This document shows, piece by piece, positions 10,683-63,978 of a stretch of 64,000 nt of DNA. The notes under the pieces were generated by a model. The model did no database searches and was not told the DNA's origin. It was given only the letters and a program-made list of their open reading frames with translations. Source of the DNA: a virus (lineage: Duplodnaviria; Heunggongvirae; Uroviricota; Caudoviricetes); IMG/VR virus record IMGVR_UViG_3300026122_000001; one strand, 5' to 3'. Position 1 is the first letter of the stretch; every line of letters begins with the position of its first letter. Position numbers and translations under genes: made by a program.

Positions 10683-11780
10683 TCAAGCTCTATCTTGAGG
10701 GTTTTTCCGGTCATAATAGTCTGCGCTGACTACCTTCGCAATCATGCGGGCACGCATCTTTGCCGACCATTGCTCTTTAAGAGGTGTGACCACACACCCC
10801 TCACGGCCTTTGAATGGGCTGTTGATGTCGGCCGGTGAGGCCACCATTGTGGGCCCGTCACAATGAAGCATCTTGGTCTCGTCAAACGCACCCTCAAAGA
10901 GCAGGGGAACAGTCGGAACGCCATGCTTGTCCGCATAGGCCTTCACATCGGCCCAGTCCATGTACTGCATGTCACCGACGGGGCCCGCCATGATGTCAAA
11001 TAGGCGATACCCAGTTCGACCAAGGGCCCCATAGTCCATATCCTGGACCTTGCGGCCATAGATTTCGCCATAGGCCACCGCAGAGCAGCCCTCACCCATG
11101 GTACTGACAATATCTGCCAGCATGTTCTTCATGGCCCCAGTCATGGGTAACCAATACAGGGAGGCACGAGACCCTGACCGAGCGTCCGACATCGGTTTCA
11201 CGTTGGTCGTGTGTGACCCGCACATGAATTCGGGCCCCTCGTCGGTATGAATCAATCCAACCCGGCTGTTGGTCCCATGAATCTTCTCGGTGATGCGAAC
11301 CATTGTGCCTGGCGGGATCGCTCCGGGATGGGCCCGCAAATGCTTGATGCTGGTGTAGATCGGAAACAGCATGTGATCCGGCCGGGCATCGCCAGCGGTC
11401 ATTTCAATCGGCGGCTCGTACTTGACGCCATGATACATCGCGGTGACATTGGTGCCGAATGTCATGTCCCCAGCGTATCTTATCACGAAGCCAAAGGAGG
11501 CCTCGCCACGAATACGAATTGCCCCGACCCGGCATTGTGATTTCTTCTCGTCCCCGGGGTAGACAGAATGCTTCAAGTACCGCTGGGTGCCCAACGCTTC
11601 AGCTACCGATGATGGGATGAGAATGTCTGGCGGGAAGAAAACCACCGAGTCCCCAACCCGATACAAGTCCCGTTGCACAGCGAGTTGGAAACCCAAGACC
11701 TGAATCACATCCAACCGGTCAGCGTTGGGGTGCGGTTTGACTTCGTTGACTCGTTCAATGGTGATAAGCGTCTGGCTCAT
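10683..11780 (-). CDS. ATP-dependent RNA ligase with N-terminal tRNA-binding (OB/Myf-like) domain
   Basis: Nucleotidyltransferase motif I 'ITEKIHGTN' (KxHGxN) and an N-terminal 'NADRLDVIQVLGFQLAV...VVFFPPD' OB-fold-like tRNA-binding segment. This is the DraRnl/NgrRnl-type architecture. Confidence 0.7.
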   Translation of the reverse strand: MSQTLITIERVNEVKPHPNADRLDVIQVLGFQLAVQRDLYRVGDSVVFFPPDILIPSSVAEALGTQRYLKHSVYPGDEKKSQCRVGAIRIRGEASFGFVIRYAGDMTFGTNVTAMYHGVKYEPPIEMTAGDARPDHMLFPIYTSIKHLRAHPGAIPPGTMVRITEKIHGTNSRVGLIHTDEGPEFMCGSHTTNVKPMSDARSGSRASLYWLPMTGAMKNMLADIVSTMGEGCSAVAYGEIYGRKVQDMDYGALGRTGYRLFDIMAGPVGDMQYMDWADVKAYADKHGVPTVPLLFEGAFDETKMLHCDGPTMVASPADINSPFKGREGCVVTPLKEQWSAKMRARMIAKVVSADYYDRKNPQDRA

Positions 11781-13618
11781 AGTTGGGCTCCAGTGCCGAT
11801 GTTAATGGGTAAACTTGGGTGGGGCACAGGGTACTGGTTAATCAGATACTCAAAGGCCTCACAAAAGGCTAGCGGCTCCTCGGTGTTGTTGTAAATCTCT
11901 CTGCACAGGGCACAGTCGGTGATCTGGTCACTCATGCGCGTCCGGAACACCACATCATCGATCATGCGGGTAATCAGGTTCTGGTAAGACCGATAGCTGG
12001 TGGCTACCAACTCTGACATACCAAGCCGGTCGTTGGCGGCCGACGCAACTCGACTGTACCAATGATCGCCACGGAACGTCACCATGGGTTTCCGTAAATG
12101 CCAGTTGTCGATGATTGTATTGTAACCTCCGAACGGAAAAGAATCAATACCAAAGTCACCGAATTCCAACCGTTGCATATAACCGTCATAACCACCCCGA
12201 TCAGGCATCGCTATAGCGGTATTGCCAAATATCTCTTTGATGTCCGCCAGGAATGGGTTAAGCCCCTGGTAGCGGCAAACACCATTGCTTGGGAAGAACT
12301 GAACACGGCATGGGGCCTTCGCGGCACGCATGGCGTCCCGTACCGCATACAACATGGGGATGTTGTATTTGGTCGGGCCCCAGCAAGCATTGATTATCAC
12401 ATCGGTAGAAGTACGTTTTGGTTTGCGTGGGACATAGCTGGGCTTTACGGACTGGTTGCCCATACCAGGCAACAACACCAGCCGCTCAGAATAATGTCGC
12501 TGGGCACCAGGAGCCTCGACCTCAGCACCGCTGATGAAGTAGTCAATCTCTGACCCGGCCGTACTCACCGGGTGGCCAGTGGTGCTGACTTGAATGGGCG
12601 CGAAACGCTGGTTGGCCAATATCAGGGACAGGGCATTCATCCCGACATCCGGGTACAGGATGGCCGCATACGAGTTACACTGTAGGGGCTCAAGACCTTG
12701 AATCTGATCGTCTTCATCGATATGCACGAAATGCACGTTGTCAAATCCGACGGTATCGACCGCCAAGTCCCCGGCGTCTTTACCAAGATGGAACAAGTCC
12801 AGTTTGAAACGACTTCGCAAAGCAGCAACCAATGGGGCCACACTTTTGTGTACCACAGTGTTGGGTGCCCAGCGGTCTGAAATGATGGCAATCCGTGTGT
12901 CATCTGGTGTGTTATTCACCGGCACCTGTGGCCACTTGGCTTTGATACACTCATTCAGTTGGCGTTTCAGTGATGGTGCGCCATCCTCATCGGCATAGGT
13001 TGGGATGAAATGCGCATCCGTAAACTTTGTTGAATGCGGAAAACCAGGTGGTGGACCACTACGGAAATGTTCCCGCAGCCGTCGCTGAACGTGCTCGGAC
13101 GTAATACAGTTGGCAGCCAACGGGTAAGTAGTCCACCACGCAGCCTGAAGCTGGTCGCACGAGTCTGTGTATTTACAGAAATCACTCGGGCGCATTTGCC
13201 GGTATGTTCTCGGTGACATCAGCGTAAGAATCTTCGATAACTGCTGGTTGGTGCTAAACAGTCTGTCAAGCCAGACATCGGCTGTATTGAAGCTTGACAG
13301 CGCCAAGAGGTTGGCAATGATGGGATTCAATGAGACAAAATACAACTGGTCCGGTTTCTGGACATGAAACCTGGGCGACACAAAGGTGTCCAGAAAGACT
13401 TTCAGAAATTCTTCGAGATGGGTACGGGTTGCGGGCCTCATTGGGCCAAGATTGACTTGGCAATAGAAGCTAAACGCTTTGCGAATTAGCCTCATGTACT
13501 CGGGGTAATCATACCCGTTGCTGGTCAGGCATATTCTCTGCAACTCGAAGTCAGGCAGCACTCGTTGCACCAGGGACAAGTTTGTTGGTGGCTGTATTGG
13601 ATAAGTCATCAGTTTCAC
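11777..13618 (-). CDS. GT41-family glycosyltransferase (OGT / HMW1C-like catalytic domain, no TPRs)
   Basis: 'QRFAPIQVSTTGHPVSTAGSEIDYFISGAEVEAPGAQRHYSERLVLLP' aligns with human OGT '[48 protein letters not shown]'. A later block 'KPMVTFRGDHWYSRVASAANDRLGMSELVA' matches OGT '[20 protein letters not shown]'. Confidence 0.75.
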   Translation of the reverse strand: MKLMTYPIQPPTNLSLVQRVLPDFELQRICLTSNGYDYPEYMRLIRKAFSFYCQVNLGPMRPATRTHLEEFLKVFLDTFVSPRFHVQKPDQLYFVSLNPIIANLLALSSFNTADVWLDRLFSTNQQLSKILTLMSPRTYRQMRPSDFCKYTDSCDQLQAAWWTTYPLAANCITSEHVQRRLREHFRSGPPPGFPHSTKFTDAHFIPTYADEDGAPSLKRQLNECIKAKWPQVPVNNTPDDTRIAIISDRWAPNTVVHKSVAPLVAALRSRFKLDLFHLGKDAGDLAVDTVGFDNVHFVHIDEDDQIQGLEPLQCNSYAAILYPDVGMNALSLILANQRFAPIQVSTTGHPVSTAGSEIDYFISGAEVEAPGAQRHYSERLVLLPGMGNQSVKPSYVPRKPKRTSTDVIINACWGPTKYNIPMLYAVRDAMRAAKAPCRVQFFPSNGVCRYQGLNPFLADIKEIFGNTAIAMPDRGGYDGYMQRLEFGDFGIDSFPFGGYNTIIDNWHLRKPMVTFRGDHWYSRVASAANDRLGMSELVATSYRSYQNLITRMIDDVVFRTRMSDQITDCALCREIYNNTEEPLAFCEAFEYLINQYPVPHPSLPINIGTGAQL

Positions 13619-14880
13619 CTCAGGTATTCTTGTAGTTTGCCCTCGTTGACGTACAGTATTAGGTCACACGGGATACCCATGCTTGCAATCTGCGAAGCAA
13701 TGTCGCGCACCCGCCATGCCGAGGTGACCACAATGATGTCCACCGGTGAGTCTTTTAGCACCCCGGGGTCCTGAATCGCCTGGCCTGTGCCCGGGACATG
13801 TTTCCCAACAAGCTCGGGATTTGAATCCACCACCAGCGGGAACTTGACCCTATTCACCCCATAGAAGTTAAAGAACGAGGCGCTCTTACCAATTCCGCCC
13901 CAAAAGGCCAGCTTGCGCCCACAGTCCCGGTAGTTATGGAGATCGGCTGAAACTGCTAGAATTTGGTTATCAGCTTGGTCCCCAAACTGTTTGGCACGCT
14001 GGTTGTGCGATTCGCATGGACGCAACTTACACAGGGCTGTCAACACGCCCTTATGGTAGGCAGTCCCAGCCCGAATGATATGAAAATGTTTTTGTAACAA
14101 GTGTTCCAAGCTTTGAGTTGTAAACTGCGAGACATGCTCATAGATCATATCCTGCAACCGAAGTTTGTCAAGAATCAAATCACCATTCGGAACTTCGACA
14201 AACAGGTATGGTTGGATGCCCTCCAGGTGACAGGCGTAAACCAACTCATCCAAAAAGACAGCAGGCTGGGGGAAATGTTCGAGCACATGCCGCATGATAA
14301 TCAACCCAGGCATATGGGCCGGAATGTCCCATTCTGGGTTTGCGTAGTCGAGCTTGTAAACGAAATCTCGGTCAACGCACTGCGAGTCATGGGTCCGCCA
14401 GTATTCCAAGCTGGGATCAATCCCAACGTACTTCATGGTGTTCCAGTTGCTGTACAGCGACATCTCATTGATGAAAGAGCCGTCCCCGCAACCGATTTCC
14501 ATAACGGTGTCCCCAGGCTCCAGCGGTACAAACTCAGTTAGCTCGTAGGCTAGTTGCTCACAATGATTCACCCAGCCCTCGCCACGATTGTACATCTGCC
14601 AGTTGCCCACATAGTCAACCGCTTCGGGATCGAACTGTGGATTGTAGATATGGCCGCAGTCGCCGCACAAAACATGCAGCATGCCATACCTGGCCGCCGA
14701 TAAAGCTTCTTGCTCGCTAGCAGGCGGGGCAATCGTGGACAGTGGTTGATGCCCAGGGGCGAACAATGTGTATGGATTCATGCCACCACAGACAATACAA
14801 TGAGTCCTCATGCTTTTTTGCCTCCATGCCGATATGGGCGACTCTTGTTGTAGGCAAGTTTTTGTTCCAAGGCTTCGCAC
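13615..14880 (-). CDS. SAM-dependent methyltransferase, TylC3-type C-methyltransferase-like (Zn-ribbon + MTase + C-terminal domain)
   Basis: N-terminal zinc ribbon (CIVCGG...CGDCGH), methyltransferase motif I 'VMEIGCGDGSF', and a long C-terminal domain as in NDP-hexose C-methyltransferases. Confidence 0.7.
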   Translation of the reverse strand: MRSLGTKTCLQQESPISAWRQKSMRTHCIVCGGMNPYTLFAPGHQPLSTIAPPASEQEALSAARYGMLHVLCGDCGHIYNPQFDPEAVDYVGNWQMYNRGEGWVNHCEQLAYELTEFVPLEPGDTVMEIGCGDGSFINEMSLYSNWNTMKYVGIDPSLEYWRTHDSQCVDRDFVYKLDYANPEWDIPAHMPGLIIMRHVLEHFPQPAVFLDELVYACHLEGIQPYLFVEVPNGDLILDKLRLQDMIYEHVSQFTTQSLEHLLQKHFHIIRAGTAYHKGVLTALCKLRPCESHNQRAKQFGDQADNQILAVSADLHNYRDCGRKLAFWGGIGKSASFFNFYGVNRVKFPLVVDSNPELVGKHVPGTGQAIQDPGVLKDSPVDIIVVTSAWRVRDIASQIASMGIPCDLILYVNEGKLQEYLR

Positions 14881-15464
14881 ATCGGAATTTCAAACTCATA
14901 ACACACGGCCGCCGAGACAATGAACATCTTGGCGAACACCGCAGCCATGCCACGAGGGAACCCGGTGGCAGTGTCGCGAGTCAAGAATTTCTCCGGGTCC
15001 AAGCCGTTCACTCGGTACTCTTCCATGGCATAACTGATCTGGGCGATAATGACCATCAGGCCATGGGAGAGGTCCACGCCGTAGCCTGCATCTGGTTCCA
15101 TGAACTTCCAGGCTTCTTCGATCAAGTCCTCCAGCCGGGCCAACGGATGGGTTGCCGGGCCACGCCCCATGATCTCGCCTATCGCCTCCACGATTGGAAT
15201 TTGGTACCGTCCGATGGTGTCGGCAGCCCGAATCCATAGGTCGGCAAACTCAGAGGCCAATCCCTCGGGCTTCCTTGTGTCCACATCGCGTGTCAAATAG
15301 GTCTGGTATGCGGGCATACCGGTGGCAACCTCTTCCCATACCTCGGTGAGTTCGGTGACAAACAACATCAATTGTTCACCAAAGTTGCGATCCATCTGTT
15401 CCCACCAACCTTTTTCGATGGCGGTTCCGTGGGACTCTTCAATCAGTTGGGTTATGTTAATCAA
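14808..15464 (-). CDS. MazG-like nucleoside triphosphate pyrophosphohydrolase
   Basis: 'GEQLMLFVTELTEVWEE' helical EExxE-type motif and C-terminal 'KLAYNKSRPYRHGGKK', typical of phage MazG proteins. Confidence 0.65.
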   Translation of the reverse strand: MINITQLIEESHGTAIEKGWWEQMDRNFGEQLMLFVTELTEVWEEVATGMPAYQTYLTRDVDTRKPEGLASEFADLWIRAADTIGRYQIPIVEAIGEIMGRGPATHPLARLEDLIEEAWKFMEPDAGYGVDLSHGLMVIIAQISYAMEEYRVNGLDPEKFLTRDTATGFPRGMAAVFAKMFIVSAAVCYEFEIPMCEALEQKLAYNKSRPYRHGGKKA

Positions 15465-25304: not shown

Positions 25305-25305
25305 C

Positions 25306-28686: not shown

Positions 28687-28758
28687 GTGGGGCATAGGGG
28701 AATTGAACCCCTGTTGCCGGGTTGAAGGCCCGGTGTCCTAACCACTAGACGAATGCTC
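28687..28758 (-). tRNA. tRNA-Glu (anticodon TTC)
   Basis: Reverse complement GGAGCATTCGTCTAGTGGTTAGGACACCGGGCCTTCAACCCGGCAACAGGGGTTCAATTCCCCTATGCCCCA. D-arm GTCTAGTGGTTAGGACACC closely matches E. coli tRNA-Glu. Anticodon arm CCGGG-CCTTCAA-CCCGG; T-arm AGGGG-TTCAATT-CCCCT. Confidence 0.8.
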
Positions 28759-29050
28759 CTGGGTCTGCTGTCACAATTCGGTACATGTGTTGAAGAATCT
28801 CTGCCTCACACCAGCTAGAAAAACTTGACAGTGTGTAATCAGCGGCTGCCATATCTACCCAAAATGTGATATACAACGGGCGACCATCCTGGCACGGCAT
28901 CATCACCTGGATCATGCGTCCGCCGGGACCATGCCTGGGTGATGGCTGCACTGTGACCGTGCCACCATACTGAGCCGCCATGGTGCGAATCCGACCCAAC
29001 CTCAGAGGCTTAAAATTCATGGCCACATGGACACTCCCGTTTACGTACAT
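28745..29050 (-). CDS. hypothetical protein (trimmed from longer ORF)
   Basis: The long ORF's N-terminus overlaps the basic zinc-ribbon gene out of frame. An internal Met (MYVNG) gives a 102-aa product. Confidence 0.3.
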   Translation of the reverse strand: MYVNGSVHVAMNFKPLRLGRIRTMAAQYGGTVTVQPSPRHGPGGRMIQVMMPCQDGRPLYITFWVDMAAADYTLSSFSSWCEAEILQHMYRIVTADPGAFV

Positions 29051-31174: not shown

Positions 31175-31239
31175 CAGTGGTCGGTTCCCGTCTCAGTGAC
31201 CAAACATCGATCGGGGCCGTTCTTCCGGGTCATAAGTTT

Positions 31240-31331
31240 GGCCCGTAGAGGAATCGAACCCCTGACTCCCCACCCACCGCCGTGTTCAACATTGGTAGGA
31301 CCAGGGTGCTTTACCACTAAGCTAACGAACC
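31240..31331 (-). tRNA. long (92-nt) tRNA-like gene, anticodon unresolved
   Basis: Reverse complement has acceptor GGTTCGT/ACGGGCC (2 GU pairs), D-arm GCTT-AGTGGTA-AAGC and T-arm AGGGG-TTCGATT-CCTCT. The 44-nt region between D- and T-arms does not fold into a clear anticodon arm by eye. Confidence 0.45.
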
Positions 31332-53400: not shown

Positions 53401-55729
53401 TGTTTGGACGATAGATTTGCAGGTACCCACCCCCATTCAACACACCGGTGGAATAGATGTACGTGTCTGTATCATAATACGTGAGGATACGGTAAGCCAA
53501 GGTGAGTGTACCATAGATTTTGAGGTCACCGCCGTCGACACGCATGTATGATCCAGCCGTCTCGACGGTATAACTGGCCCCGGTGTCAACCGTGACTGCA
53601 TAGAAGTATTCTGCGGCACCAACGGGGTCGTTGTTCCAATAGCTTTTTCCGACACCCTTCAGGATGAGAGTCCCTGTGCCTTTATCTACGTTAGCCCCAA
53701 CACGATTGTCGTAGTTACCATACAACGTGAGGTTGGTGGTAGCGTCACCCATGGTCATTGCGGCCGAAGCGTTGTCAAAGGTGAAGTCTCCATAGACGGT
53801 GAGGCTGTCCTGATAGGTGCTCATAATCAGACGTGTAGCATCGATGTTGAGCGTGCCACCAATCGTGGAGTCATTGTAGACGTACATCGCGCGACCGCCC
53901 GTTTTTGCCACCTGCGTGTTTTCAATTTGATGGCCAAATGTGGAGATGAATCCGTGGGCGTTGCTGCCACTGAACGTGATGGTTCCAGAGCCTTTGGTCC
54001 AGGTAATGTTAGAATTCTGAATGTACAGGTATCGCTCGCAGACGAAGTTGGGGTTGTTGACAGAATTGTCAATCACCAAAGAACCGCTGGAAGTTTCATA
54101 GTGATACCAGTTGTGGAACGTATAGGTTCCACCACTGTATCGCATTTCGCAGGCGCTGGCATTTTCGTTTCTAACATAAAACTCGGTGATTGATGAATAG
54201 TCAGCCGGAACTAGCACAGCAGTGGCAACCGGGTAATAATAATAAAGGTGCGTGCAAGTCACGGTGGCTGAAGCTGAATAACTGACAATACCGCCACCGT
54301 TTGCTGGGTAATGGATATAGAAACCCGTGGCACCAGAGATGTTGGCCGTAGCACTGACTGTTGTTTGGCAGTTCCCAAGACACAACAGATAGCCGGTGCA
54401 AATCAACGTGCCATCAATAAGACATGTAGGCGAACCAGTCTGGGCACCACAGCGGCCATAGCTGGCCGGGATCGTGATGGTAGCCGTTGAGGCAATCCAT
54501 AGACTGAAGACATATTTGCTACCAGTGAAGAATGTGCCGGTCCCAATAAGTTTTAGGGCGGCCGTATCACGGTTCACAGTCGAGCAATCAGCGTTGTCGA
54601 ACGATGTCCCAATGGTCCAAGTAGCACTGCCCATACTGAGAGTAGTGAAGTCAAAGATTGCGCTACCGATTGTGGTCACGTTGTAGGTGGCAGCATCAAA
54701 GCTGCCAGCCGTACCAGTGAGGCTGTCAGTTGTCAAATCGTTGGCGAGCGTAACAGTATTGGCCGACTTGTCAAATATGATGTCCTCGACGGCTGGTTCA
54801 ACCGTGCAGGTTTGGTCGGCACCGCCACTGAAGGTGATTGAACCCGAACCTTTGGACCATACCAGCGAACCTGCGCCGGTATTGGTGGCACTGAAATCTC
54901 CCTTGATATCCAGGCTGGCGTTATTGGTGAGCATATTGACGGTGCCCGTGAAAGCCCCGCTGTTGATGACAACAAAATCCATATTGAATGTAGTAGTGCC
55001 CGCCGGAAAAATGATATTGTCGGTGTTTTCTGAAAGCGTGATCTCAATGGTGTCTCCAGCACCGCCATCGCCATAGATAGCCGGTACAAATGTCATGCCT
55101 CGGGGCTGTGAACAAAGGATATCTGCATTCCAGGTGCCGTCCATTTGTTTGACGCCACGGTTACCCCATTTGAAGTTGACATAACCTGTCGTGCTGTTAA
55201 TCACACCAGTAGCACTCACGGATATACCACAGCCAGAATACATCTGTAGGACACGGACATCAACATTCAAGGTTCCGTCCACTAGCACGTTGTCATCAGC
55301 GGCAGTTGCTACTTGAACATACACAGCGTTTGTCAGGGTAATGCTCGCCCCGGCAGCGATCCAGATGTTGTTGTAATAGCACGTAGTTGCCCCGCCATAC
55401 CAGGTCTTGCCAACCCCGGTGAGTTTGATAGTGGAAGTTTCTTTGGTGAACGTGATGCCAGCGAAGTACGGATCAAAGTTGCCAGCAATGGTCCATAGGC
55501 CTGAGCCCATTGTGATTGTGTCTGTGATGTTGAACGTGACATCGCCGTTGATCGTGACATCGTTTGCGCCCGTGGTCCAGTTGCCGTCGGTCAGCACGAG
55601 GCTGGCAGCACCGAAGTCGCTGATGAGTGTGACACCATTGGATGGTTTGTCCACTTCAACACCCACTGCGAATGCGTGGCCTTGGAGGTCGATATTTTGT
55701 GCGGCAGAACCCGTGAATTTGATCGCCAT
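47432..55729 (-). CDS. giant repeat protein (2765 aa): beta-helix-like repeats, YWTD/NHL beta-propellers, two LamG/ConA-like lectin domains; putative tail fibre/adhesin
   Basis: N-terminal Gly/Thr/Asn-rich periodic repeats; LamG-like 'WRHIWLRRYNNNVELYIDGEL'; YWTD-type blades (KLYVADVG, KIYWVDWADRCIKRSNLNGS, RVYWTSRNTGKILYCNYDGSS); C-terminal LamG 'WHHYAITRKGLTMVWYIDGV'. Confidence 0.7.
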   Translation of the reverse strand: MAIKFTGSAAQNIDLQGHAFAVGVEVDKPSNGVTLISDFGAASLVLTDGNWTTGANDVTINGDVTFNITDTITMGSGLWTIAGNFDPYFAGITFTKETSTIKLTGVGKTWYGGATTCYYNNIWIAAGASITLTNAVYVQVATAADDNVLVDGTLNVDVRVLQMYSGCGISVSATGVINSTTGYVNFKWGNRGVKQMDGTWNADILCSQPRGMTFVPAIYGDGGAGDTIEITLSENTDNIIFPAGTTTFNMDFVVINSGAFTGTVNMLTNNASLDIKGDFSATNTGAGSLVWSKGSGSITFSGGADQTCTVEPAVEDIIFDKSANTVTLANDLTTDSLTGTAGSFDAATYNVTTIGSAIFDFTTLSMGSATWTIGTSFDNADCSTVNRDTAALKLIGTGTFFTGSKYVFSLWIASTATITIPASYGRCGAQTGSPTCLIDGTLICTGYLLCLGNCQTTVSATANISGATGFYIHYPANGGGIVSYSASATVTCTHLYYYYPVATAVLVPADYSSITEFYVRNENASACEMRYSGGTYTFHNWYHYETSSGSLVIDNSVNNPNFVCERYLYIQNSNITWTKGSGTITFSGSNAHGFISTFGHQIENTQVAKTGGRAMYVYNDSTIGGTLNIDATRLIMSTYQDSLTVYGDFTFDNASAAMTMGDATTNLTLYGNYDNRVGANVDKGTGTLILKGVGKSYWNNDPVGAAEYFYAVTVDTGASYTVETAGSYMRVDGGDLKIYGTLTLAYRILTYYDTDTYIYSTGVLNGGGYLQIYRPNNGHGLVLLDGTISCGDLLMDLVSGSTTPVLVAGDYSNITGSVQVRNIYSGAEVGTWTPSAGTYVFNNLLFHTYGTGMNAIYIEGDTNNPNYQFYGDLTYTDNSSGNSLWDSGTGTISFLGGTQDSLFQMSGTYEHIISNKTGGYGLTMTTPDSDACGSISLIAGDLTITGGNLWGPTITLAGSGAVAMTNAIIYPQDWDDTAHTGTQNITCSIRPRSPQTWAARAAGSDITELRCFNVYSTFDGGYTLTSGDLNISGRLEIDDGCEMVVDSGTTIQMGSGAKLALESGGTLSGDGYIYFNGSTGGAGVEDIAGTASIAAMFAINPAASAVFTPGTYETGTFTARVDSGTANFAFRAGDYAFGGQLAFRGQGTGGDLTIDCSTYTPVTIAAVDLAIAITGGSTSDVTVDCSGRDVRWDISDDVIDAISGTGEFVWTRGTGHIDLSTGATPGDVDFCDLEIDTLSQGTWPCYYFDGTGEFHMNNATPFAGGSADAEWALGGWIRPATGVPGGSYEVLFATAVGGNTWLSTPSVTILLYNADHAIYPGKVRFGYEGSNGVGINFASVTTLIGQCDRWRHIWLRRYNNNVELYIDGELDATAACGSVLEADPNDNATLGNYADYLPDGYKFVGHMKDWGKWDSAVLPGPLAQGASPKHYHKSSMRWLLPLDSDTEWFENRTTINEGCIFVEDANDIVLSGGVQPANFYGRHGDLDMNGQTIDSPGNVSLVNTNAQALDEMDDCTINCDTFYQGGSSPDMWCAAQSPWYLNTFTSGDFYTAGVGFCDASRYKFLGDTGPGFGGPDSWSGTGWIMYTEEDAGTRFAYASYPTSWSEHTVAVHYSGGQWYVWNNETAIAFEARATDILIGDVNYTSDTVTDLQGVAATVVNGVVRGYDHGDLTMIPDWYNGVADNGEFTVEGTYFKAWGSNPVARPICDDRTGNIGVNFDKSQIIMLNSGAASYDAGIYVCNTDGSEYRLLNYTQEDSVEQISTQQSGEMIYWTSSVTHGWMSRMSRDGLFYERIKTGLGRPFAMAVCAEHGYVWWSEYDAGTLQRCNLDGSNQVSMGSSSQCSGLAVDPIAKKLYVSEKGVDIIYSMNFDGTSKTAVHTLASTNNPRRLTIDYINGWLFWTEDDTGGSRIRRGTTAGGSLGVVWSASSYATGLEYNHNDEYLYFANGDGYVWKIKPLTGTDLQIVVDKSDSSENYLGVGTWDGDPVGGAPGNCPDDTDGKLYVADVGTSKSIRRIDLDFTADTKLMEGRVTAVSSLKCDDVNGKIYWVDWADRCIKRSNLNGSRPEVVIDNRVLGPYIYRMAIDPVAGFLFFTDDGPAMFRSNLDGTDRRTIRTSGAADSNYYALDCERESQRVYWTSRNTGKILYCNYDGSSVTTRLATATPWHMCIDNVNRRVIWTNQSNIYQVMGYDTGAAGQFGTGGSDKNITYSPDNDTMYLAYSGTVYGRVIGPATGGTGITALWSPSGGDIDGVTICHKHLPTRGDGTSKLMIFADGLHNMHNIDTKGENLRILTGQVAAQILNESAYANTSRMLFWADYSLGQIRSGDPEMLTTPVLMHDDASTVRALCISQTREELYFYSHTYGIWKMPFTGGTPVNILPSGYTGTATRGMWCQENEGTKGKIYWCGSDDYIRKADCDGGNSENWLSGLTNVGNYPISITGDNKGHIFWGCYSDGKIKRADEDGSNIVLLRTMGTNGPAAGGMVYNPRDDFIYWGNNVGGNVYRMRSDGTDFEEIYLAAGTVQARSLAIIHGLDIPMKDPVLWLKMDDDAASNVVTDYSANAEHQTVQHETTPNTEDNTVAGVHGAQALDFDVAGHGCIYLTDAATKAYLAENVDFTISWWWKSNDPGAATANHFMSNYNGNNSSIYCMLYNNNVYLYCQKSTNGGVSVTSSFNHWEATDSEWHHYAITRKGLTMVWYIDGVAQVTQTHADNYVDFSPTTTNLQISLLSPSSQSSDGYCQDYRIYDRAMTIEQINAAMNFPRVPVR

Positions 55730-55741: not shown

Positions 55742-58087
55742 TTATGCAAAGATCACTTGACCAGTGCTGCTCTCTTGTACGCTTACATCGCCTTGGAAGT
55801 CAATGGTGGGGCTGTTTGTTGTCATATCAACCGTCAGGTCCACAGTGTTGGTGCATTGATAGATCACGTCCCCAGTGAATGTGTGGGTCCCTGCGCCATA
55901 CCTAATCGTGTGGTCTACGCTACTTGGCGAACTGACGCGCAACGTGCCACAGTCGATTGTGCCCGCCACATATGTGTTACCAGGAAGGGGGTATTGAATG
56001 TACCCGGTGGTTGTGTCCCATGTCCCGTCGAGCACGGTGATATTGGATTGTGCAAACGATAGATAACCTGTGCCTGTCACCAAACCGCCAGTGTTTAGGA
56101 TAAAGTTCACATAATAGCATCCAATGTCGCCTGTGCAAGTGAGGGTCCCATCCACAGTGAAATCTCCAGTGTTGGACCTGAAGACTTGGCCGGATGGAAT
56201 CGTGTACGAACCTGTAATCCACAATGCATAACAGTAGGTGCTACTAGCAGTCATACCTACAGTTTTGCCGGTACCGGTAAGCTTTAGCACCGAGGTACCA
56301 TAATCAACAGTACCGCAGCCAACCCAGTCCACGTTACCGCTGCACTCCCAGGTCCCAGAACCCATGTACAATGTGTCCCCAGCGTTGGTTAATGTCCAGT
56401 CGCCGGTGGTGACATTGTAGCCATTGGCGTTGAAGTTTCCGTCCTGGATGTCCAGGCTGGCACAGCAGAGGTCGGCGTTGAGTGTCAGTGTGCCGCCAGA
56501 CTTGTTGACAACAACATTGCCCACACAGTCATCGAATGCGATACCCTGGTCTGCTGAGCCCGTAAAGGTCAGGGTGTCGCCAGCACCCAGAGTCCAGAAG
56601 ACACGCCCTGTTGAAAGGTAGTCCTCTGTGTAATCTCCCTGAATCTCGATAGTGGGATTGTTGGTGGTGTCGATGTACAAATCATATGTGTTTTGTGTCT
56701 GGGCTTCTATATCCTCGAAGATGTAGGTACCCGCCTGAAACTTCAGTGTGGAGTCGCCTGTGGGGGCTGCGCGTTCACGTAGATAAAATATGTCCGTCAC
56801 GTTGGAATAATCCCCGGGGTCCAACACAGAGGTTGCTTCTGGGTCATCAAAATAGATGTTCGCTACAGTCAATGTTCCGTCGTTTCCGATCAGCCCCTTG
56901 GCCGAGCCCGGATTGAATACTTGTAGCCAACCATCACCTGACACACCGCCATTGATGTCCAGTGTGGCTGTCGGTTGTACATTGAGGGCCGTTCCAGACA
57001 CAGCCGCCAGAGTTCCGTCAATCACGCCCGCACCGTCGTACCTAATCTGACCAGCATCCAAGGTATAAGTGCCAGTTATCCAAATGTCGTTGTGATAATG
57101 GGTAGCTGGTGGGAAGCTCACCGTCTTGCCAGCCCCAGTGAGTTTGAATTGACTGGTCTCTTTTGTGATGGCATCAAGGTCCACAGTGTCAAGGTTGCCA
57201 GAGATTTCCCAGGTTTGTGAACCGGCCACAACCGAATTGGATTCAAGCAGCACGTCGCCTCGCAGGTCAAGTCCATAAGTGTTGGCATCGAAGGTACCTT
57301 GGTGGACATCAAAGCCCGCGCAGTCAATCGCCGCCTCCAGAGTTGCTGTGTGGGTGGTGCCGTCAGTTGATCCGTTATTGGTGATAGTGAGTCCACCGAC
57401 TCCCGTGGAATAATCACCACGCTTCATTGCGCACGCCCACTTCAGGTTGGTGGGATCAATTTCACTGACGCGGATACCGCCTGCCAAGGCGTGGCGATCC
57501 GCCTTTGACAGAACAGCATCCCATTTACCCCAGTTGCACATGTCTCCGCTGAAGAAGCGGTCGGACGCCAACGAATAGCAGGCACCAATGTACCATGGGG
57601 AAACTGGATCGATGGCAGTCATGCTGGTGCCTGCATTCCTGCCGATTTCTCGACCATCCAGGTACAAAATAAAATCGTCCCCGTCGCGGACCAACAGGAA
57701 ATGGTGCCAAACAGACAGGGTGATTTCTGTCACGCTGGTTGGCGAAATACCATAACTGCCTCCAGTCGAGACAACCCCTGTCTGTAGCCAATCCCCAAGG
57801 TCATGACGTATAAGCAGATACAGCCGTCTTGTGGCGTCCCTGAAGTCAAACACATACCTGACATCATCGAGACTGTCTTCTGGCTTTATCCAGCCTCCGA
57901 CACTCCAGTCTCCGTCGGGGAAGTCAACCAGGGCGTCATCATCGAATGTCACATAGTCATTGATGCCATCAAAACTCCAACCTTCAAAGAGGTTCACACT
58001 GACTGGGTCAGTCTGCATCGTACCGTGATCGATGCTCTTGTTCGCACCGCCTGTAATCCAAATCGCCATGATTATTCCTCCAGCCAA
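55742..58087 (-). CDS. giant-repeat paralogue (781 aa) with N-terminal LamG/ConA-like domain and beta-helix-like repeats; putative fibre protein
   Basis: 'WSVGGWIKPEDS...VWHHFLLVRDGDDFILYLDGREIG' LamG-like block, then T/G/N-rich repeats similar to the neighbouring giants. Confidence 0.65.
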   Translation of the reverse strand: MAGGIIMAIWITGGANKSIDHGTMQTDPVSVNLFEGWSFDGINDYVTFDDDALVDFPDGDWSVGGWIKPEDSLDDVRYVFDFRDATRRLYLLIRHDLGDWLQTGVVSTGGSYGISPTSVTEITLSVWHHFLLVRDGDDFILYLDGREIGRNAGTSMTAIDPVSPWYIGACYSLASDRFFSGDMCNWGKWDAVLSKADRHALAGGIRVSEIDPTNLKWACAMKRGDYSTGVGGLTITNNGSTDGTTHTATLEAAIDCAGFDVHQGTFDANTYGLDLRGDVLLESNSVVAGSQTWEISGNLDTVDLDAITKETSQFKLTGAGKTVSFPPATHYHNDIWITGTYTLDAGQIRYDGAGVIDGTLAAVSGTALNVQPTATLDINGGVSGDGWLQVFNPGSAKGLIGNDGTLTVANIYFDDPEATSVLDPGDYSNVTDIFYLRERAAPTGDSTLKFQAGTYIFEDIEAQTQNTYDLYIDTTNNPTIEIQGDYTEDYLSTGRVFWTLGAGDTLTFTGSADQGIAFDDCVGNVVVNKSGGTLTLNADLCCASLDIQDGNFNANGYNVTTGDWTLTNAGDTLYMGSGTWECSGNVDWVGCGTVDYGTSVLKLTGTGKTVGMTASSTYCYALWITGSYTIPSGQVFRSNTGDFTVDGTLTCTGDIGCYYVNFILNTGGLVTGTGYLSFAQSNITVLDGTWDTTTGYIQYPLPGNTYVAGTIDCGTLRVSSPSSVDHTIRYGAGTHTFTGDVIYQCTNTVDLTVDMTTNSPTIDFQGDVSVQESSTGQVIFA

Positions 58088-61000
58088 ACTACCGTGCCAG
58101 CAGCGTCATTGACTACGATGCCACCAGCGGGTAAGAAGATACGTGCGCCATTGGTGTTATCAATCGTGAGAGTGTTAGCAGAGTAAGCATACAATTCTAC
58201 CATAGTCGCGCAATCGAAAACGTAAGTGGTATCAGACAGCTTGAACACTGGGGCCCCGCCAGTAGTGCTGAATTGAAGTATATCCGGGTTGTAAATCCCA
58301 CCAGCCAGCACTGCCGTATTGGTCCATCGCTCCAGCCGTAGTGTGGCGATATCACAAACACCGTCCATGATATCAATACCAGACCCAGCCGTGGCATACA
58401 TAGACCGACACACGCCAGCACCCGTCAGGAGGCCAGTAGTCTTTACCCTCAGGAGGCTGCCATACATCGATCCCAGCGTACAACTGGCATTAACAGTCAG
58501 CGTGCCATCAATGGTAATTTTGCCATCCCGGGCCCAAGCACCATTGACATCACTGATGGTGACAGACGCCCCGGTGTCGATCCACAACGAATAAAGGCCA
58601 TTGTTGTATTTTGTGACGACCGTGACGCCAGTACCTGTCATCCTTACAATCGACGTTTGGTGTGTGCCATTCAGACTGTTTGCAAGGCTATCCCATGACC
58701 CACCAAGTTCCCAGAAGCTTACGGCACCCATCCAAACCTCATCAGCAGACAGGAGGTCCACATTGGACGTTACAGTGACATTATAGTCGTTGGCGTCCCA
58801 CTCACCATCATTGATGACAAAGTTCTCGCAGACAAAGTCGTTTGCCATAGTGACCCGGCCCGCGCTTTTGTTCACCGTCACATTATCAATGGCCTTACCA
58901 TCGAAGTCGATTGACTGGTTACCCACCCCTGTAAAGGCCACCGACCCAGTACCAATGGTCCAGGTCATTGTCCCCGAGTTGATCTTACCAACTACGTTAC
59001 CCTGGAAGACCAATGATGGGTCGTTGGTGGAGTTGTTGATATGCACGGTGTCGATGGCATGATGGGGGCTAAAGGCGACATCTCCAGTGAATGTAGTTGT
59101 GCCGCCATCAAAGTTGAACTCGCCACCAGTAATATCTGAGCCAAAATGTACAGAGGCGCTATCATACTGGGCGGCAGCCATGGCGGTGATACCAGTGGTG
59201 GTGGTGTTAAGGTACAATTCCAGATAGTACACATCAATGGTTCCTGTCATTGACGTAATCCCCTCGCCGGGAGAACCTATGTATATCTTGAGGCGGCCAT
59301 CACCAGTCACGGTGCCAGAAACATCAACAGCACCCCGGGGGATAATAGCCAGGCCTGATGGGATTGTTAATGTGGCATCAACATCCAGAGCTTCACAGTA
59401 GCCGGTTGCGGCTACCGTTGTATTACCTGCAATCCAGATATCGGGGTGAGTTGGCCAACTTGTGGACTGAAGCGACAGGGTTTTACCGGCCCCAATCATC
59501 TTGATGGTGGCAGTACCCTTTGTGATTGTGGTCACATCAGCGAAGTCGGCGTCACCACCAAACTGCCAGGTTCCGGTTCCGAAATCAACTTCCCCACCAT
59601 CAAAGGCTGCATCGCCACTGGCTGTGAAGTTGTAGGTCACCCCGTCGAGTTTTCCGGTGTAGCCAGATTGCATGTCGGCCCCCGCCACGCTCCAAGCGAG
59701 GTCCAGCGAGCAATCATCCGTGACACCATCATCCCAGATCGGTGTATCCAACAGGCTGGGCACGCCCGCATTGTCCACGGTTCCACTCTCGGAACCCCAG
59801 TTGCGGTAATCGTCCACCAGACCATTGGCGGCACCATTGGTCCAGTACAAGCCATCAAACGCCCAGTTGACATTGCTGCCTTCGTTGATCGAATTGGTGC
59901 AATGGATGGTCTCGCCGCCGGACGCATCCGAGTTCTGCACTGTGACATGTTGAACCGTCATGGTTGGACTCGTGACATTCAGGTACCAAGTGGCGGCAGC
60001 ACCAAGATCAAGTTTGGCACCGGACTGACCGGTCATGGTAATCTGACCACCAACATTGATTGTGCAACCACTGAGGCCCGCAACGATGAAGCTACCACCG
60101 GTGCCAACAGTGAAGTTGCCAACCGTGTCCAACGTGTAGCCATTGAGGTCCAAAGTTCCAGTCTGGACATTAAGCGAATCGGTTTTGAGATTACTGGCCA
60201 TACTCAGTGTACCAGACTCGGTGACAACGATGTCTTCAATCGTTTGGGTGGCAACAGTAGACATGGTAAAGGTGTGAGTGCCCCCACCTGACAGGGTGAT
60301 GGTCCCTGTACCTTTGCTCCATGTTAGTGTGCCGCCATTATCATCGAAGTACAGATCACCCGCAACATCAAATGACGGGCTGTTGATAGCATTGTTCACA
60401 TGACATGTTTCGCCAGTACCAGATTGCATACGCAAGAACCCTGTGATGGTATAGAGTTCGTTGTTCAATCTGATATCTGAGTCGGCAGCATTAGTGTGGA
60501 GCCATACGTTGGAATCATAGGTCCCGCCTATGAACACACCTGTGCTGGTCGTATCACGGACATAGAAGTCAGCGACAGAGAGTGTCCCGTCAATAACCGT
60601 AAGTCCGCCGCCATCGGTGTTACCAGTACATATGCAACCACCAGCACCGGTAAGAGTGCCACCCGTATTGATCTTGAGTTGCGAGGCACCTTGGCAAATG
60701 AGGTACTCGGCTGCGGATACCGTCACGGTTCCATCAATAATCATGTCCCCGGTGTTGACATACGCATATGTGGAGTCAATAGCATACGAACCAGTCACCC
60801 AGATGCTGTACACGCCCAGTGTGTTGTTGCCACGGTAGTATTTGCTGGCCCCAATAAGTTTGAGTTGGCTAGAGCCACGGGTCGCACTGGGCACGTCTAT
60901 CCAATTCACATTGCCGCCACAAATGATGTCCCCAGAGCCCCAGTTAATGTAGGAGTTGTCTGCAATGAGATCACCAGTGATGGTGATGATGGCATCACCG

Positions 61001-63978
61001 AAGTCCCAATAGCCTGTGGTCAACGTGAGAGACTCAGTCGTGAATGTACCGGAGATCGTAGCAACATTGGTACCAGTCTTGGTGGAGACAATTTCTTCCA
61101 TGTCAAAGTTATCGAAGTTCAAAGCCTGCGTGGCGGTGCCCTCGATACCAACGGTACCGGTGCCCTTGGTCCAGGTGGGCAAACCATCACCAGTAGCGGG
61201 CTGCATTTGTGTGAAGTCGCCTTGGAAGTTGACATCTGGATTGTTGGAGTTGTCCCAAATTAGGTCGCCATCCCACCCGTCATAGTTACGCATGAGTACC
61301 TCTTTGGCAAACGTGTAAGTGCCAGCACTCAGCTTGAATGTTCTGTCGCCATTTGTGAGATTTCGTATCTCTACCTTTTCGGGGTATGTTCCAGGTACCC
61401 AGGTTGCCGTGGGGCTGGGCATTTGAATTCGCATACCGCCATCCACAGAGAATGTCCCGTCCAGGACGGCAAGCCCGCCTGCGGGATAATAGAAGTTGAA
61501 GACATTGGTGCCATCAACAACTGCACCGCTGTTGATGCTAACTACGCCCGTGTTCCCGGACTGCAAGGTTCTATTCACATGCACAGTGCCATCAATACGC
61601 AGTGGGCCACCGCTTACTTTGCAGCCATGGGTAGCGTCCCCATCAATGGTAACTTCAGCCGTGGGGTACACACGCAAGGAGTACAAGAACTGGGTCAGCA
61701 ACATGTAGATTGAACCCGTCCCACGCATATGCAATTCAGAAGTCTCATCGTCGATGGTGCCACCAGAAACATTGAAGTCACCCCAGACATGCCAGTCGCC
61801 ATTGGTGCCCATTTGGATCGTGCCACCTTCCGCGAGCAATCCAAGCTGTGTGGTACTGTCCCCGATGTAGAAATCCGTGTCGTTTGAGAGATCGAGGATG
61901 CCGTCAAAATCAGCATGCAGATGCAAACTCCTACAATAAGCGTGCCCGGGTGTATTGCATTTTTCGGAACCGTTGGCATCAAAATGCACATCATCATCGA
62001 CTGTTGGGTATGGCGCAATGCTGGGGCCACCACTGTAATAAGCCCAGGTATCCCCTTCGGTTACTTGCTGCCAAGTTCCGCTGCCACCGCTTTCACGTAC
62101 CCAGTACCGCTGTCGGTTGTCGCCGATATGATTGACCGCCAGTATGGTTTCGGCAGCCAGCCCCAGGACAACATTTCTGGCTCCGTCACTGACGAGCGCT
62201 AGCGTGTTGGAGGCGGCTAGATTCAGCACGAAATTCTTGTCGCTTCCGTCAATCATGGCCAGAGTATCTGTGGCATACCGGTCAAAGATGGCATCAAAGC
62301 TGGCAGCTTGGCTCACGATCAGGCTATCTGATCCAAGACGTTGCAAGCTGAAACCTAGCACGTTGCTGTGTGACAAAGCAAGAGTGTTCTCAGCACTTTC
62401 CGGCCGTGATTCATTTTCGTCAGCCTGGGCGGTTAGGGTCAGTGTGTCAGCAACTGACTTGTTGTAGACGCCATTGAGATTCAAAGCATCAGAGACCGTT
62501 AGAGTCGCGGAACCGTCCAGCACCCATACCGTATTCTGGTCGCTGCTATCAGTTGGTGTAAGTGTGTTGGAAGCCGCACGGACCCACACGCCGTCAAACA
62601 CAGCAGCGTCAGATACAGTGAGGGTGTTTGCGTGATTCAACGTAAGGACAAAAAGCTTAGCACTCGCGTCTGTTAGAGTCAGCGAGTTACTGAGTGTCCG
62701 GACTCGAACCATATTAACGCTGGCGGCATCAGTTACGGTGACAGTATTGGATGCGGACTCCACGGTGAACCGATTCACGCTCACAACGTGTGATACAGCC
62801 AGGGTGCTGCTTGCATGCCGGAACCATACTTGAATCCGCCAATGCACATCGAGACCAAGGATACCGTTTGCAAGGCTGTCAGTATAGATCGCAGTGTTAT
62901 TGTTACCATCAGCACCCACTACATACACATCGTTGTCAGTTGAGTAGTACAGCTTGTTGTTGATCGGGTTGTAGGACAAATCATACACGGTCTCGCCGAC
63001 TGACAGAATCTCTGTGTTGCCAGTGCCGGATGTTGTGATACGGTAGATTTTGTCGTCATCGCTGTCGAAGTAATAGATGTAGTCGTTGATGAAGTCCACA
63101 GCCAGTCTGGTGATGGTCCCCAGGCTGGAAGCCACCGTGGCAAGATTGCTACCATCCAAGTCACATTTCTGAAGCGTGTTGGTTCCTTCCGAGGCCATAA
63201 AGAGAACAGCGTTTTCTTCATCAACCGCCAAACCACGTTTGGTATCAGATGGCCCGGCACCATCCAGTTCTAAACTGGTGAATAGCTGAGATGAGTTGCT
63301 ACCATCCAAGTCGGCTACCCACACACCGTTCCCGGCGTCCGACCAGTAGACCTTGTCGGGCCCAACTGCCAGCCCCTGTGGATCAGAGATACCACCAATG
63401 ACATTGTCAATTGTGGAAGTGCCATCAATGTTGGCGCGATCGATTTCGCCGTCGCCATTTTCGATGAAGTAGATTTTCTCGGAACTCAAATCCAGACGGG
63501 CGTCCCAACCGTCTGTGATGTCAGAAGTCCATACATCCTCGACATTGCCCCCATCAAGGTCCATCCGGAATATCTTGTTGTTGGTGCTGTCAAAGACATA
63601 GACTTTCTGGAACACAACCGGCACCAAACTGAAGATGGCCGCATCGGTCATAGCCAACGTGGATTCTGGGTTCCTGAGCCACGAATTCCAGGCTCGACTT
63701 TGCCACGCAAGCGTGTTCTCCCCAACCCGGGTGATGGTTTGATTGAAGGTGGCCGAATCTGTCAGACTGAGGGTGTTCGATGGGGTCTCGGTCTTGAGGC
63801 TCACAAGGACCACAGCGTCGGTTAGGGCCGTGGTGTGGCTGAGGGCCCTCTGATAGACGGTCGAGGCCTCGGCAGCGTCTGTGGGGCTCACAGAGCTTGT
63901 GGCGGCTCGGTTGAGGATGCTGACCTCTGTGGCCACACTGGACAGGGTTGGGCTGGTCGCCGCCGACCGGGCGGCCAC
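58072..63978 (-). CDS. giant repeat protein, 5'-truncated at window edge (>1968 aa): YWTD-like beta-propeller, tandem 'NTLxLTD' repeats, beta-helix-like repeats; putative fibre/adhesin
   Basis: The ORF runs to the window end without a start codon. Propeller blades (KIFRMDLDGGN, EKIYFIENGDGEIDRANIDGTS, DKVYWSDAGNGVWVADLDGSN) and ~20 tandem copies of an ~18-aa 'SNTLTxTDxAxxN' unit. Confidence 0.65.
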   Translation of the reverse strand: MAARSAATSPTLSSVATEVSILNRAATSSVSPTDAAEASTVYQRALSHTTALTDAVVLVSLKTETPSNTLSLTDSATFNQTITRVGENTLAWQSRAWNSWLRNPESTLAMTDAAIFSLVPVVFQKVYVFDSTNNKIFRMDLDGGNVEDVWTSDITDGWDARLDLSSEKIYFIENGDGEIDRANIDGTSTIDNVIGGISDPQGLAVGPDKVYWSDAGNGVWVADLDGSNSSQLFTSLELDGAGPSDTKRGLAVDEENAVLFMASEGTNTLQKCDLDGSNLATVASSLGTITRLAVDFINDYIYYFDSDDDKIYRITTSGTGNTEILSVGETVYDLSYNPINNKLYYSTDNDVYVVGADGNNNTAIYTDSLANGILGLDVHWRIQVWFRHASSTLAVSHVVSVNRFTVESASNTVTVTDAASVNMVRVRTLSNSLTLTDASAKLFVLTLNHANTLTVSDAAVFDGVWVRAASNTLTPTDSSDQNTVWVLDGSATLTVSDALNLNGVYNKSVADTLTLTAQADENESRPESAENTLALSHSNVLGFSLQRLGSDSLIVSQAASFDAIFDRYATDTLAMIDGSDKNFVLNLAASNTLALVSDGARNVVLGLAAETILAVNHIGDNRQRYWVRESGGSGTWQQVTEGDTWAYYSGGPSIAPYPTVDDDVHFDANGSEKCNTPGHAYCRSLHLHADFDGILDLSNDTDFYIGDSTTQLGLLAEGGTIQMGTNGDWHVWGDFNVSGGTIDDETSELHMRGTGSIYMLLTQFLYSLRVYPTAEVTIDGDATHGCKVSGGPLRIDGTVHVNRTLQSGNTGVVSINSGAVVDGTNVFNFYYPAGGLAVLDGTFSVDGGMRIQMPSPTATWVPGTYPEKVEIRNLTNGDRTFKLSAGTYTFAKEVLMRNYDGWDGDLIWDNSNNPDVNFQGDFTQMQPATGDGLPTWTKGTGTVGIEGTATQALNFDNFDMEEIVSTKTGTNVATISGTFTTESLTLTTGYWDFGDAIITITGDLIADNSYINWGSGDIICGGNVNWIDVPSATRGSSQLKLIGASKYYRGNNTLGVYSIWVTGSYAIDSTYAYVNTGDMIIDGTVTVSAAEYLICQGASQLKINTGGTLTGAGGCICTGNTDGGGLTVIDGTLSVADFYVRDTTSTGVFIGGTYDSNVWLHTNAADSDIRLNNELYTITGFLRMQSGTGETCHVNNAINSPSFDVAGDLYFDDNGGTLTWSKGTGTITLSGGGTHTFTMSTVATQTIEDIVVTESGTLSMASNLKTDSLNVQTGTLDLNGYTLDTVGNFTVGTGGSFIVAGLSGCTINVGGQITMTGQSGAKLDLGAAATWYLNVTSPTMTVQHVTVQNSDASGGETIHCTNSINEGSNVNWAFDGLYWTNGAANGLVDDYRNWGSESGTVDNAGVPSLLDTPIWDDGVTDDCSLDLAWSVAGADMQSGYTGKLDGVTYNFTASGDAAFDGGEVDFGTGTWQFGGDADFADVTTITKGTATIKMIGAGKTLSLQSTSWPTHPDIWIAGNTTVAATGYCEALDVDATLTIPSGLAIIPRGAVDVSGTVTGDGRLKIYIGSPGEGITSMTGTIDVYYLELYLNTTTTGITAMAAAQYDSASVHFGSDITGGEFNFDGGTTTFTGDVAFSPHHAIDTVHINNSTNDPSLVFQGNVVGKINSGTMTWTIGTGSVAFTGVGNQSIDFDGKAIDNVTVNKSAGRVTMANDFVCENFVINDGEWDANDYNVTVTSNVDLLSADEVWMGAVSFWELGGSWDSLANSLNGTHQTSIVRMTGTGVTVVTKYNNGLYSLWIDTGASVTISDVNGAWARDGKITIDGTLTVNASCTLGSMYGSLLRVKTTGLLTGAGVCRSMYATAGSGIDIMDGVCDIATLRLERWTNTAVLAGGIYNPDILQFSTTGGAPVFKLSDTTYVFDCATMVELYAYSANTLTIDNTNGARIFLPAGGIVVNDAAGTVVWLEE

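Follow-up and report, generated by a model that had tools for sequence, protein, structure and literature searches.

The window analysed in this work, a stretch of 64,000 nucleotides from the IMG/VR phage record IMGVR_UViG_3300026122_000001 (all coordinates given without a locus label are positions in it), contains two neighbouring genes that encode a GT41 glycosyltransferase of the HMW1C type and an S-adenosylmethionine (SAM)-dependent methyltransferase. An initial annotation of the same DNA had linked the glycosyltransferase to three giant, fibre-like proteins encoded elsewhere in the window. More interesting than that link is the conservation of the HMW1C-like GT41 and methyltransferase pair across a phage clade, with relatives in Planctomycetota and Cyanobacteria. 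From the family and fold of the enzyme, its conserved nucleotide-site residues, the pairing and distribution of the genes and the bacterial contexts of their relatives, we propose, with a probability of roughly 45%, that the two genes form a cytoplasmic protein-glycosylation cassette that most likely acts on virion surface proteins.

The GT41 glycosyltransferase

The gene had been listed as an open reading frame (ORF) at 11777-13618 on the minus strand, opening at a GTG at 13618; because the database copy of the protein has 610 amino acids (aa), we place its start at the ATG at 13609. The Pfam model Glyco_transf_41 (PF13844) matches the protein with 37.6 bits, above the cut-off of 25 (E=1.1e-9), the match being confined to its 90 C-terminal residues. 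When the single protein was compared with PDB sequences, the best matches were AaNGT, ApNGT and 8j30 (E ~1e-18), and those to XcOGT, SPINDLY and human OGT were weaker (2e-7 to 3e-6). A profile of 60 family sequences aligns with AaNGT and ApNGT over nearly their entire length (chain residues 54-601, E=1.5e-56), a span that takes in the all-alpha domain distinguishing the NGTs, whereas the same profile matches only the catalytic half of OGT and SPINDLY (E ~1e-20). No Pfam match to tetratricopeptide repeats (TPR) was found in the phage protein; its N-terminal domain aligns instead with the all-alpha domain of the NGTs and is joined to the GT-B part in place of the TPR. The GT-B fold retains the nucleotide-binding Lys and the G-H and N...D motifs, with K417, G348-H349, N500 and D504 aligned to K440, G369-H370, N520 and D524 of AaNGT (K440 being what we take to be K441 in ApNGT numbering), and these donor-site positions show no or almost no variation within the family. 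Because it joins an NGT-like full-length fold to conserved donor-site residues, the protein can be regarded as a catalytically plausible GT41 of NGT architecture, and it is predicted to be a soluble, adhesin-type (HMW1C/NGT-like) enzyme. The HMW1C-like GT41 call of the initial annotation is thus upheld, as the Pfam match lies above its cut-off and the best solved relatives are HMW1C-like NGTs and not OGT.

The resemblance to the HMW1C-like NGTs (H. influenzae HMW1C, ApNGT 3q3e and AaNGT 8p0o) is nevertheless distant. The identity to AaNGT is 17-21%, and the NCBIfam model for the NGT equivalog (NF049992) gives 78.5 bits against a cut-off of 1000, so that the phage protein is not an NGT equivalog. 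It also differs from these enzymes in being phage-encoded, in being paired with a methyltransferase and in having no substrate gene next to it. With OGT and SPINDLY, which are TPR-GT41 proteins, it has in common the GT-B catalytic fold and the CAZy family.

In AaNGT, the all-alpha domain is the peptide-binding domain and its residues Arg177 and Asp215 read the +2 Thr of the sequon, the alanine mutants of both being inactive (PMC10507012). In profile and MAFFT alignments, which are of low confidence in this helical region, the Asp215 position corresponds to Asp201 of the phage enzyme, and it is Asp or Glu in most relatives linked to two-partner secretion (TPS) genes and Ala, Pro or Gly in the clade from flagellar loci. 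The Arg177 position is a gap or Ala throughout the family, with no Arg nearby in the phage protein, in an alignment of equally low confidence. As the acceptor-site region aligns poorly, we make no call on Asn versus Ser/Thr specificity.

The partner methyltransferase

The end of the methyltransferase gene is separated from the start of the GT41 gene by 5 nt. Pfam recognizes Methyltransf_23 (57 bits) and Methyltransf_14 (35.3 bits, cut-off 23.5) in its product, and its only solved relatives, all weak, are TcaB9 (3ndi; a full-length match of residues 23-390 to 10-387 with E=5.8e-6 and 29 bits), D-mycarose 3-C-methyltransferase (4rv9) and a sugar 3-C-methyltransferase (5t6b). The nucleoside diphosphate-hexose 3-C-methyltransferases of the TcaB9/TylC3 type share with the phage protein, over its full length, the layout of zinc ribbon, SAM domain and C-terminal domain; it differs from them in the very low similarity and in that no 4,6-dehydratase or ketoreductase gene was seen in the window. 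For this latter reason, C-methylation of a keto-sugar is not established, and no gene of a 4-keto-sugar pathway was found among the Pfam-scanned ORFs of the window, although the host could supply them. The suggestion of the initial annotation that C-methylated sugars are involved therefore stands as to the presence of an adjacent methyltransferase with 3-C-methyltransferase architecture, whereas the match on which the chemistry would depend is weak.

Distribution of the pair in viruses

An identical GT41 protein was found on a contig of 156,271 bp, and the three close relatives of the window phage, in all of which the pair is tightly spaced and syntenic, are metagenomic contigs only (156-178 kb). 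The gene order kept in related phages is ribonucleotide reductase (RNR), a 218-aa ORF, methyltransferase, GT41 (in one copy or two tandem copies), RNA ligase and a phosphoesterase of 436-442 aa; the conserved 218-aa ORF (14808-15464) has no Pfam match. A scan of IMG/VR yielded 32 contigs with a member of the GT41 family, spanning 35-63% GC, and in 27 of them a methyltransferase lies directly upstream. The syntenic block common to the window and the IMG/VR contigs comprises primase, ParB, a 195-aa protein, SNF2 helicase and metallophosphatase, followed by methyltransferase, GT41, RNA ligase, phosphoesterase and family-A DNA polymerase. From the pairing, the synteny and the GC spread, we consider the pair to belong to the core genes of a broad clade of uncultured phages. 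In the collection searched, this GT41 is absent from all GenBank phage records, the methyltransferase and the 442-aa neighbour give remote matches only, and no paper joining Glyco_transf_41 with phage was found in the literature searched.

In neighbour-joining (NJ) trees, the GT41 clade of the window phage is monophyletic (100% bootstrap) and 70% support unites the remaining viral enzymes linked to a methyltransferase; the trees give the phage clade no firm sister group. Some phages of the clade have two tandem, divergent GT41 genes after a single methyltransferase gene (L001:8175-11791, L094:8215-11602 and L103:9956-13107), the copies being ~43-55% identical to the protein of the window phage, which has one copy; the two paralogue lineages are old within its subclade. 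In six viral contigs (L095:3566-4720 and five other IMG/VR loci) an ORF of ~385 aa that by eye only resembles group-1 (GT4-type) glycosyltransferases lies within ~10 kb of the pair. No ORF above ~1,000 aa was found within 10 kb of the pair in any IMG/VR viral locus, and neither the window nor any viral locus gave a match to flagellin, FliD or FliS.

Cellular relatives

At E<=1e-30 the GT41 family comprises 3,234 cluster representatives, mostly ~600-aa proteins of Cyanobacteria and Planctomycetota. In Gloeobacter kilaueensis (CP003587; L006:3616-11806), genes for TpsA (1540 aa), TpsB and a GT41 enzyme follow the hmw1A-B-C order, and TpsA or TpsB matches occur near GT41 in five other cyanobacterial loci. 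The Gloeobacter TpsA combines a clear TPS secretion domain with solenoid repeats of the GNGGAITLT type and a C-terminal CHAT protease domain.

The nearest cellular homologues of the phage GT41 (33-36% identity) belong to Pirellulales, Thermoguttaceae and Planctomycetaceae. The planctomycete gene order is flagellin (900-1076 aa), methyltransferase, GT41, fliD and fliS, and the phage methyltransferase shares 33-34% identity, along the whole of its length, with the methyltransferases of these flagellar loci, so that the pair from the flagellin loci is the nearest cellular relative of both phage genes. Flagellar loci with a TcaB9-like methyltransferase and a GT41 of NGT architecture were observed at L010:3035-9896, L017, L021, L008/L013 and L015, and they look like an undescribed flagellin modification system. 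In the flagellin glycosylation islands of Enterobacteriaceae, GT41s rarely occur without a fused methyltransferase domain (PMC4875605). Both kinds of flagellin locus therefore resemble the phage in combining a GT41 with a SAM methyltransferase, fused or adjacent. Unlike them, the phage loci have no flagellar genes and the phage GT41s form the distinct, fully supported branch described above; moreover, the enterobacterial enzymes have been described as SPINDLY-type, unlike that of the phage. At a further locus (L009:6788-12547), PqqD and transglutaminase-core genes lie between a GT41 fused to a methyltransferase and a TPR-GT41, which suggests that a lasso-peptide-like ribosomally synthesized and post-translationally modified peptide is glycosylated there. 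Since the informative bacterial contexts are centred on proteins, the acceptors would be proteins or peptides, typically extracellular filament or fibre subunits modified in the cytoplasm.

The giant proteins as candidate acceptors

Table 1. Features of the window discussed in the text
Feature	Position	Strand	Description
GT41 glycosyltransferase	11777..13609	-	610 aa from ATG; HMW1C/NGT architecture, with all-alpha N-domain (~residues 26-228) followed by GT-B
SAM-dependent methyltransferase	13615..14811	-	398 aa from ATG; CxxC...CxxC zinc ribbon, class I domain, C-methyltransferase C-terminal domain
'Sulfotransferase' of the initial annotation	8779..9303	-	174 aa; assignment doubtful
Giant ORF	47432..55729	-	2765 aa; at least 4 repeated modules, YWTD beta-propellers, LamG domains; candidate acceptor only
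Fibre-like ORF	55742..58069	-	775 aa; N-terminal LamG and two solenoid modules; candidate acceptor only
Giant ORF cut by the window	58072..64000	-	C-terminal part, at least 1968 of 3617 aa; YWTD/DUF5050 repeats, repeated modules; candidate acceptor only

The initial annotation had described ~17 kb of giant, sequon-rich fibre or adhesin genes. The three very large ORFs are real (Table 1), but the block is larger, ~21.5 kb, because the third, whose frame is still open at the window edge, is called with 3617 aa on the full contig. In a related phage the counterparts have 3604, 775 and 2408 aa. All three proteins have in common a repeated module of ~300-450 aa. Laminin_G_3 was matched in the 2765-aa (56.6 bits) and 775-aa (58.2 bits) proteins and DUF5050 (35 bits) in the protein cut by the window. 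Residues ~1800-2500 of the 2765-aa protein contain several beta-propellers of the YWTD/LDL-receptor class B, flanked by LamG domains, which resemble the ectodomains of the animal proteins LRP4, LRP2 and LRP6 (LRP4 8s9p_B, E=2.6e-40, in 6 stretches). An AlphaFold2 model of the 775-aa protein displays a short-strand solenoid pattern at residues 310-500 and 590-775 (pLDDT 75-90) within an overall pLDDT of 59.7, and it gave no Foldseek match at E<=0.001. Its top matches were beta-helical autotransporters (Ag43, E=0.06), and an assignment to that fold was rejected because these are not significant and the overall pLDDT is too weak. No PHROG structural match, PDB match or significant fold match proves the giant proteins to be virion parts, PHROG and PDB searches of the adjacent genes named no tail or baseplate protein, and single-protein scans of the viral contigs with the fibre and with a 956-aa protein found nothing. 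The label of fibres or adhesins is, then, a reasonable guess. Homologues of the 775-aa protein were found in three phage genomes only. The window also contains two SPFH/Band 7 genes, at 31550-32416 and 43503-44069 on the minus strand; one of the two lies immediately downstream of the 956-aa ORF, which itself comes after the giant genes.

The richness of these proteins in Asn, Thr and Ser was borne out (N 4.7-6.6%, S+T 18-21%); among their codons, Thr reaches 11.5% (5.9% in 23 other ORFs) and Asn 6.1% (3.6% in those ORFs). Both residues are thus ~2x commoner in the giant ORFs, and Asn(gtt) and Thr(tgt) are among the five tRNAs of the phage, which may serve the translation of the fibres.

The further claim that sequons (N-x-S/T, with x not P) exceed chance did not hold. 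The three ORFs have 32, 6 and 24 sequons in the window, in the order of Table 1, against means of 30.6, 7.1 and 26.0 in composition shuffles (z +0.29, -0.47 and -0.46); a longer fragment of the 3617-aa protein has 35 against 38.3 expected, and the three proteins of a related phage have 10, 31 and 28 against 9.2, 29.7 and 36.4. Because the counts equal the shuffle expectation in both phages, the sequon content follows from composition alone and enrichment was rejected. Preferential conservation was rejected as well, as between orthologous fibres of 49-56% identity 34% of the sequons are kept, compared with 31% for the reversed motif, 48% for D-x-S/T and 49% for N-x-A/G. These tests of frequency and conservation have limited power. 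With both measures at background, the only sequence argument joining the enzyme to the fibres is removed. The GT41 gene lies 34 kb from the fibre genes, within a replication and nucleotide module, so that the hmw1ABC- or TPS-like linkage to a substrate gene, a feature not universal among NGTs, is absent from the phage. The fibres have no homology (E>0.2) to the bacterial substrates flagellin, FliD and TpsA.

A special case of the proposed cassette would be a true NGT that N-glucosylates N-x-S/T sites of the three giant fibres. The full-length NGT architecture is consistent with it, and so are Asp201, at the position of the +2 Thr binder that is also acidic in most TPS-linked relatives, the 62 sequons in the window, the seemingly beta-solenoidal nature of the fibres, like that of TpsA and autotransporter substrates, and a 'Y-N-V-T' sequon that recurs at a position of the module in all three proteins. 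Against these stand the background sequon counts and conservation, the missing equivalent of Arg177 (in the low-confidence alignment), the distance from the NGT equivalogs and the restriction of the fibres to three genomes when the cassette is clade-wide, and we consider this special case unlikely. Given the background sequons, the apparent lack of Arg177, the 34-kb distance and the clade-wide pair, the fibres are no better indicated as acceptors than capsid, tail or host proteins. On the sequences, a link between enzyme and fibres as the primary function appears slightly disfavoured, and the fibres are possible acceptors in the window phage. What survives of the fibre glycosylation proposed in the initial annotation is the enzyme class, with a protein acceptor as the best inference; NX(S/T) modification of the giant fibres found no positive support.

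Other features of the window

Sulfation had also been suggested by the initial annotation, on account of a gene whose product scores 20.2 bits with Sulfotransfer_1, below the cut-off of 22. This product has no PDB match by sequence or with a 3-sequence profile, two contigs of related phages (L001 and L004) supplied the orthologues for its alignment, and it clustered with none of the IMG/VR loci. The gene is two genes away from the methyltransferase-GT41 pair and probably lies outside the glycosylation cassette, so the suggestion is unsupported.

Most genes of the window are on the minus strand, and they include those for class II RNR, ThyX, RNA ligase, SNF2 helicase, primase-helicase, ParB, dCMP deaminase, a dNMP-kinase-like protein, Thg1 and Ro60/TROVE, together with five tRNAs and a tmRNA. 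The tmRNA (5662-6035, minus strand) matches the full-length Rfam model RF00023 with 111 bits (gathering score 47), ARAGORN being silent on it. The tRNAs lie at 2471-2544 (-), 5227-5300 (-), 28687-28759, 31239-31331 and 31341-31415, and as the 5' end of the ORF listed at 4431-5285 overlaps tRNA-Thr, its real start should be further downstream. A Thg1-type tRNA-His guanylyltransferase (992-1918, 92 bits), the RNA ligase (10683-11780, 59 bits) and a Ro60 vWA/TROVE protein (25912-26871, 202 bits), all on the minus strand, make up an RNA-repair-like set, and no Y-RNA-like family reached its Rfam gathering score in the window.

Discussion

In the cassette that we propose, the GT41 protein would be a soluble GT-B enzyme of the metal-independent type that uses a nucleotide sugar and moves a monosaccharide to a protein side chain (Asn or Ser/Thr) positioned between the all-alpha domain and the GT-B cleft. 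The TcaB9-like methyltransferase would methylate the sugar, acting on the nucleotide-sugar donor or on the sugar already transferred, and surface-exposed structural proteins would be decorated before or during assembly. The cassette would have a relative in the pair located between flagellin and fliD in Planctomycetota. A protein acceptor seems likeliest because members of the family adjoin their protein substrates, be it flagellin or TpsA with TpsB. As the pair is clade-wide and the fibres occur in three genomes, an acceptor common to the clade must be more widely conserved than the fibres; it is unlikely that a clade-wide enzyme exists for lineage-specific fibres, but an enzyme reading a short motif could add them to its substrates.

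The presence of the pair across a clade with many presumed hosts, the viral loci without flagellar genes and a precedent in mycobacteriophages argue for virion proteins as the target. In the precedent, Freeman et al. (Cell Host Microbe, 2023; cited by PMC12619734) are said to have described phage-encoded glycosylation of capsid and tail proteins of mycobacteriophages. The glycosyltransferases are reportedly cytoplasmic and their genes need not sit in the structural module; the glycans were reportedly demonstrated on the C-termini of capsid and tail-tube proteins, whereas for the window phage virion glycans are a prediction. Several points weigh against the proposal. The cassette is located in a block for replication, nucleotide metabolism and RNA repair (SNF2 helicase, phosphoesterases, RNA ligase and DNA polymerase) and not in a structural block, and the window ORFs that were scanned include no gene for making nucleotide sugars. 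The NJ union of all methyltransferase-linked GT41s, including the clade from flagellar loci, reaches only ~47-58%. By analogy, the nearest cellular pairs would serve flagellin, which makes a host target possible. Finally, the protein acceptor, the virion target and the role of the methyltransferase are each something that we infer.

The host target deserves attention in the form of a surface filament (flagellin or another exported filament or adhesin) modified to mask a receptor, block superinfection or change motility. An early, replication-block position would suit such a host-directed function, and both the planctomycete pair and the GT41-methyltransferase fusions typical of flagellin glycosylation islands (PMC4875605) point the same way. 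Yet the pair is core in viral contigs of 35-63% GC, which probably infect many different hosts, none of the viral loci has a flagellin, FliD or FliS gene near it, and newly made flagellin, if modified, would presumably matter little in a lytic cycle. We therefore hold the modification of a host filament to be improbable.

Still less probable is an OGT-like regulation, in which intracellular host or phage proteins such as transcription, translation or replication factors would be glycosylated during host takeover. GT41 does include the nucleocytoplasmic regulators OGT and SPINDLY, and the pair keeps a constant place in the replication module beside SNF2 helicase, RNA ligase and polymerase; but the phage enzyme lacks TPR repeats, its architecture and nearest relatives are of the adhesin- or flagellin-modifying type, and partner methyltransferases for sugars typically belong to the tailoring of surface glycans (PMC4875605).

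A non-protein acceptor (a hypermodified DNA or RNA base, a small molecule or a lipid) appears very unlikely: RNR, ThyX, the 218-aa ORF, RNA ligase and phosphoesterases are among the neighbours, but the conserved all-alpha domain is the one that binds peptide in NGT (PMC10507012), the bacterial contexts are protein-centred, and the DNA-hypermodification reading was rejected as no hydroxymethylase, TET/JBP or DNA (C5-)methyltransferase was found among the scanned ORFs of the window. On the same question, no GT41 member is known to act on nucleic acid. Counting for such an acceptor, Pyle et al. (2024; cited by PMC12619734) are said to have reported that phage DNA glycosyltransferases are common.

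Returning to the virion-directed cassette, a fuller version of it, which we regard as doubtful, is that an uncultured clade of large phages coats its virions, as a core function, with methylated monosaccharides made in the cytoplasm by means of GT41 and methyltransferase, here possibly on ~7,100 residues of giant beta-solenoid and propeller fibres, with an ancestry common to the planctomycete flagellin-modification pair. Were it true, bacterial viruses would have their first virion glycosylation system based on GT41, possibly with an Asn linkage, and it could affect particle stability, adsorption and the evasion of host defences. New donor and acceptor specificities for glycoengineering might then also be gained. 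The soluble NGT-type enzymes known so far come from a few Gammaproteobacteria and are valued in the production of N-glycoproteins. The NGT architecture belongs to a large family present in cyanobacterial TPS operons, planctomycete flagellin loci and, as a conserved gene pair, a broad uncultured phage group. Should the phage enzymes glycosylate virions, an environmental phage clade would have protein glycosylation among its core, lineage-defining traits.

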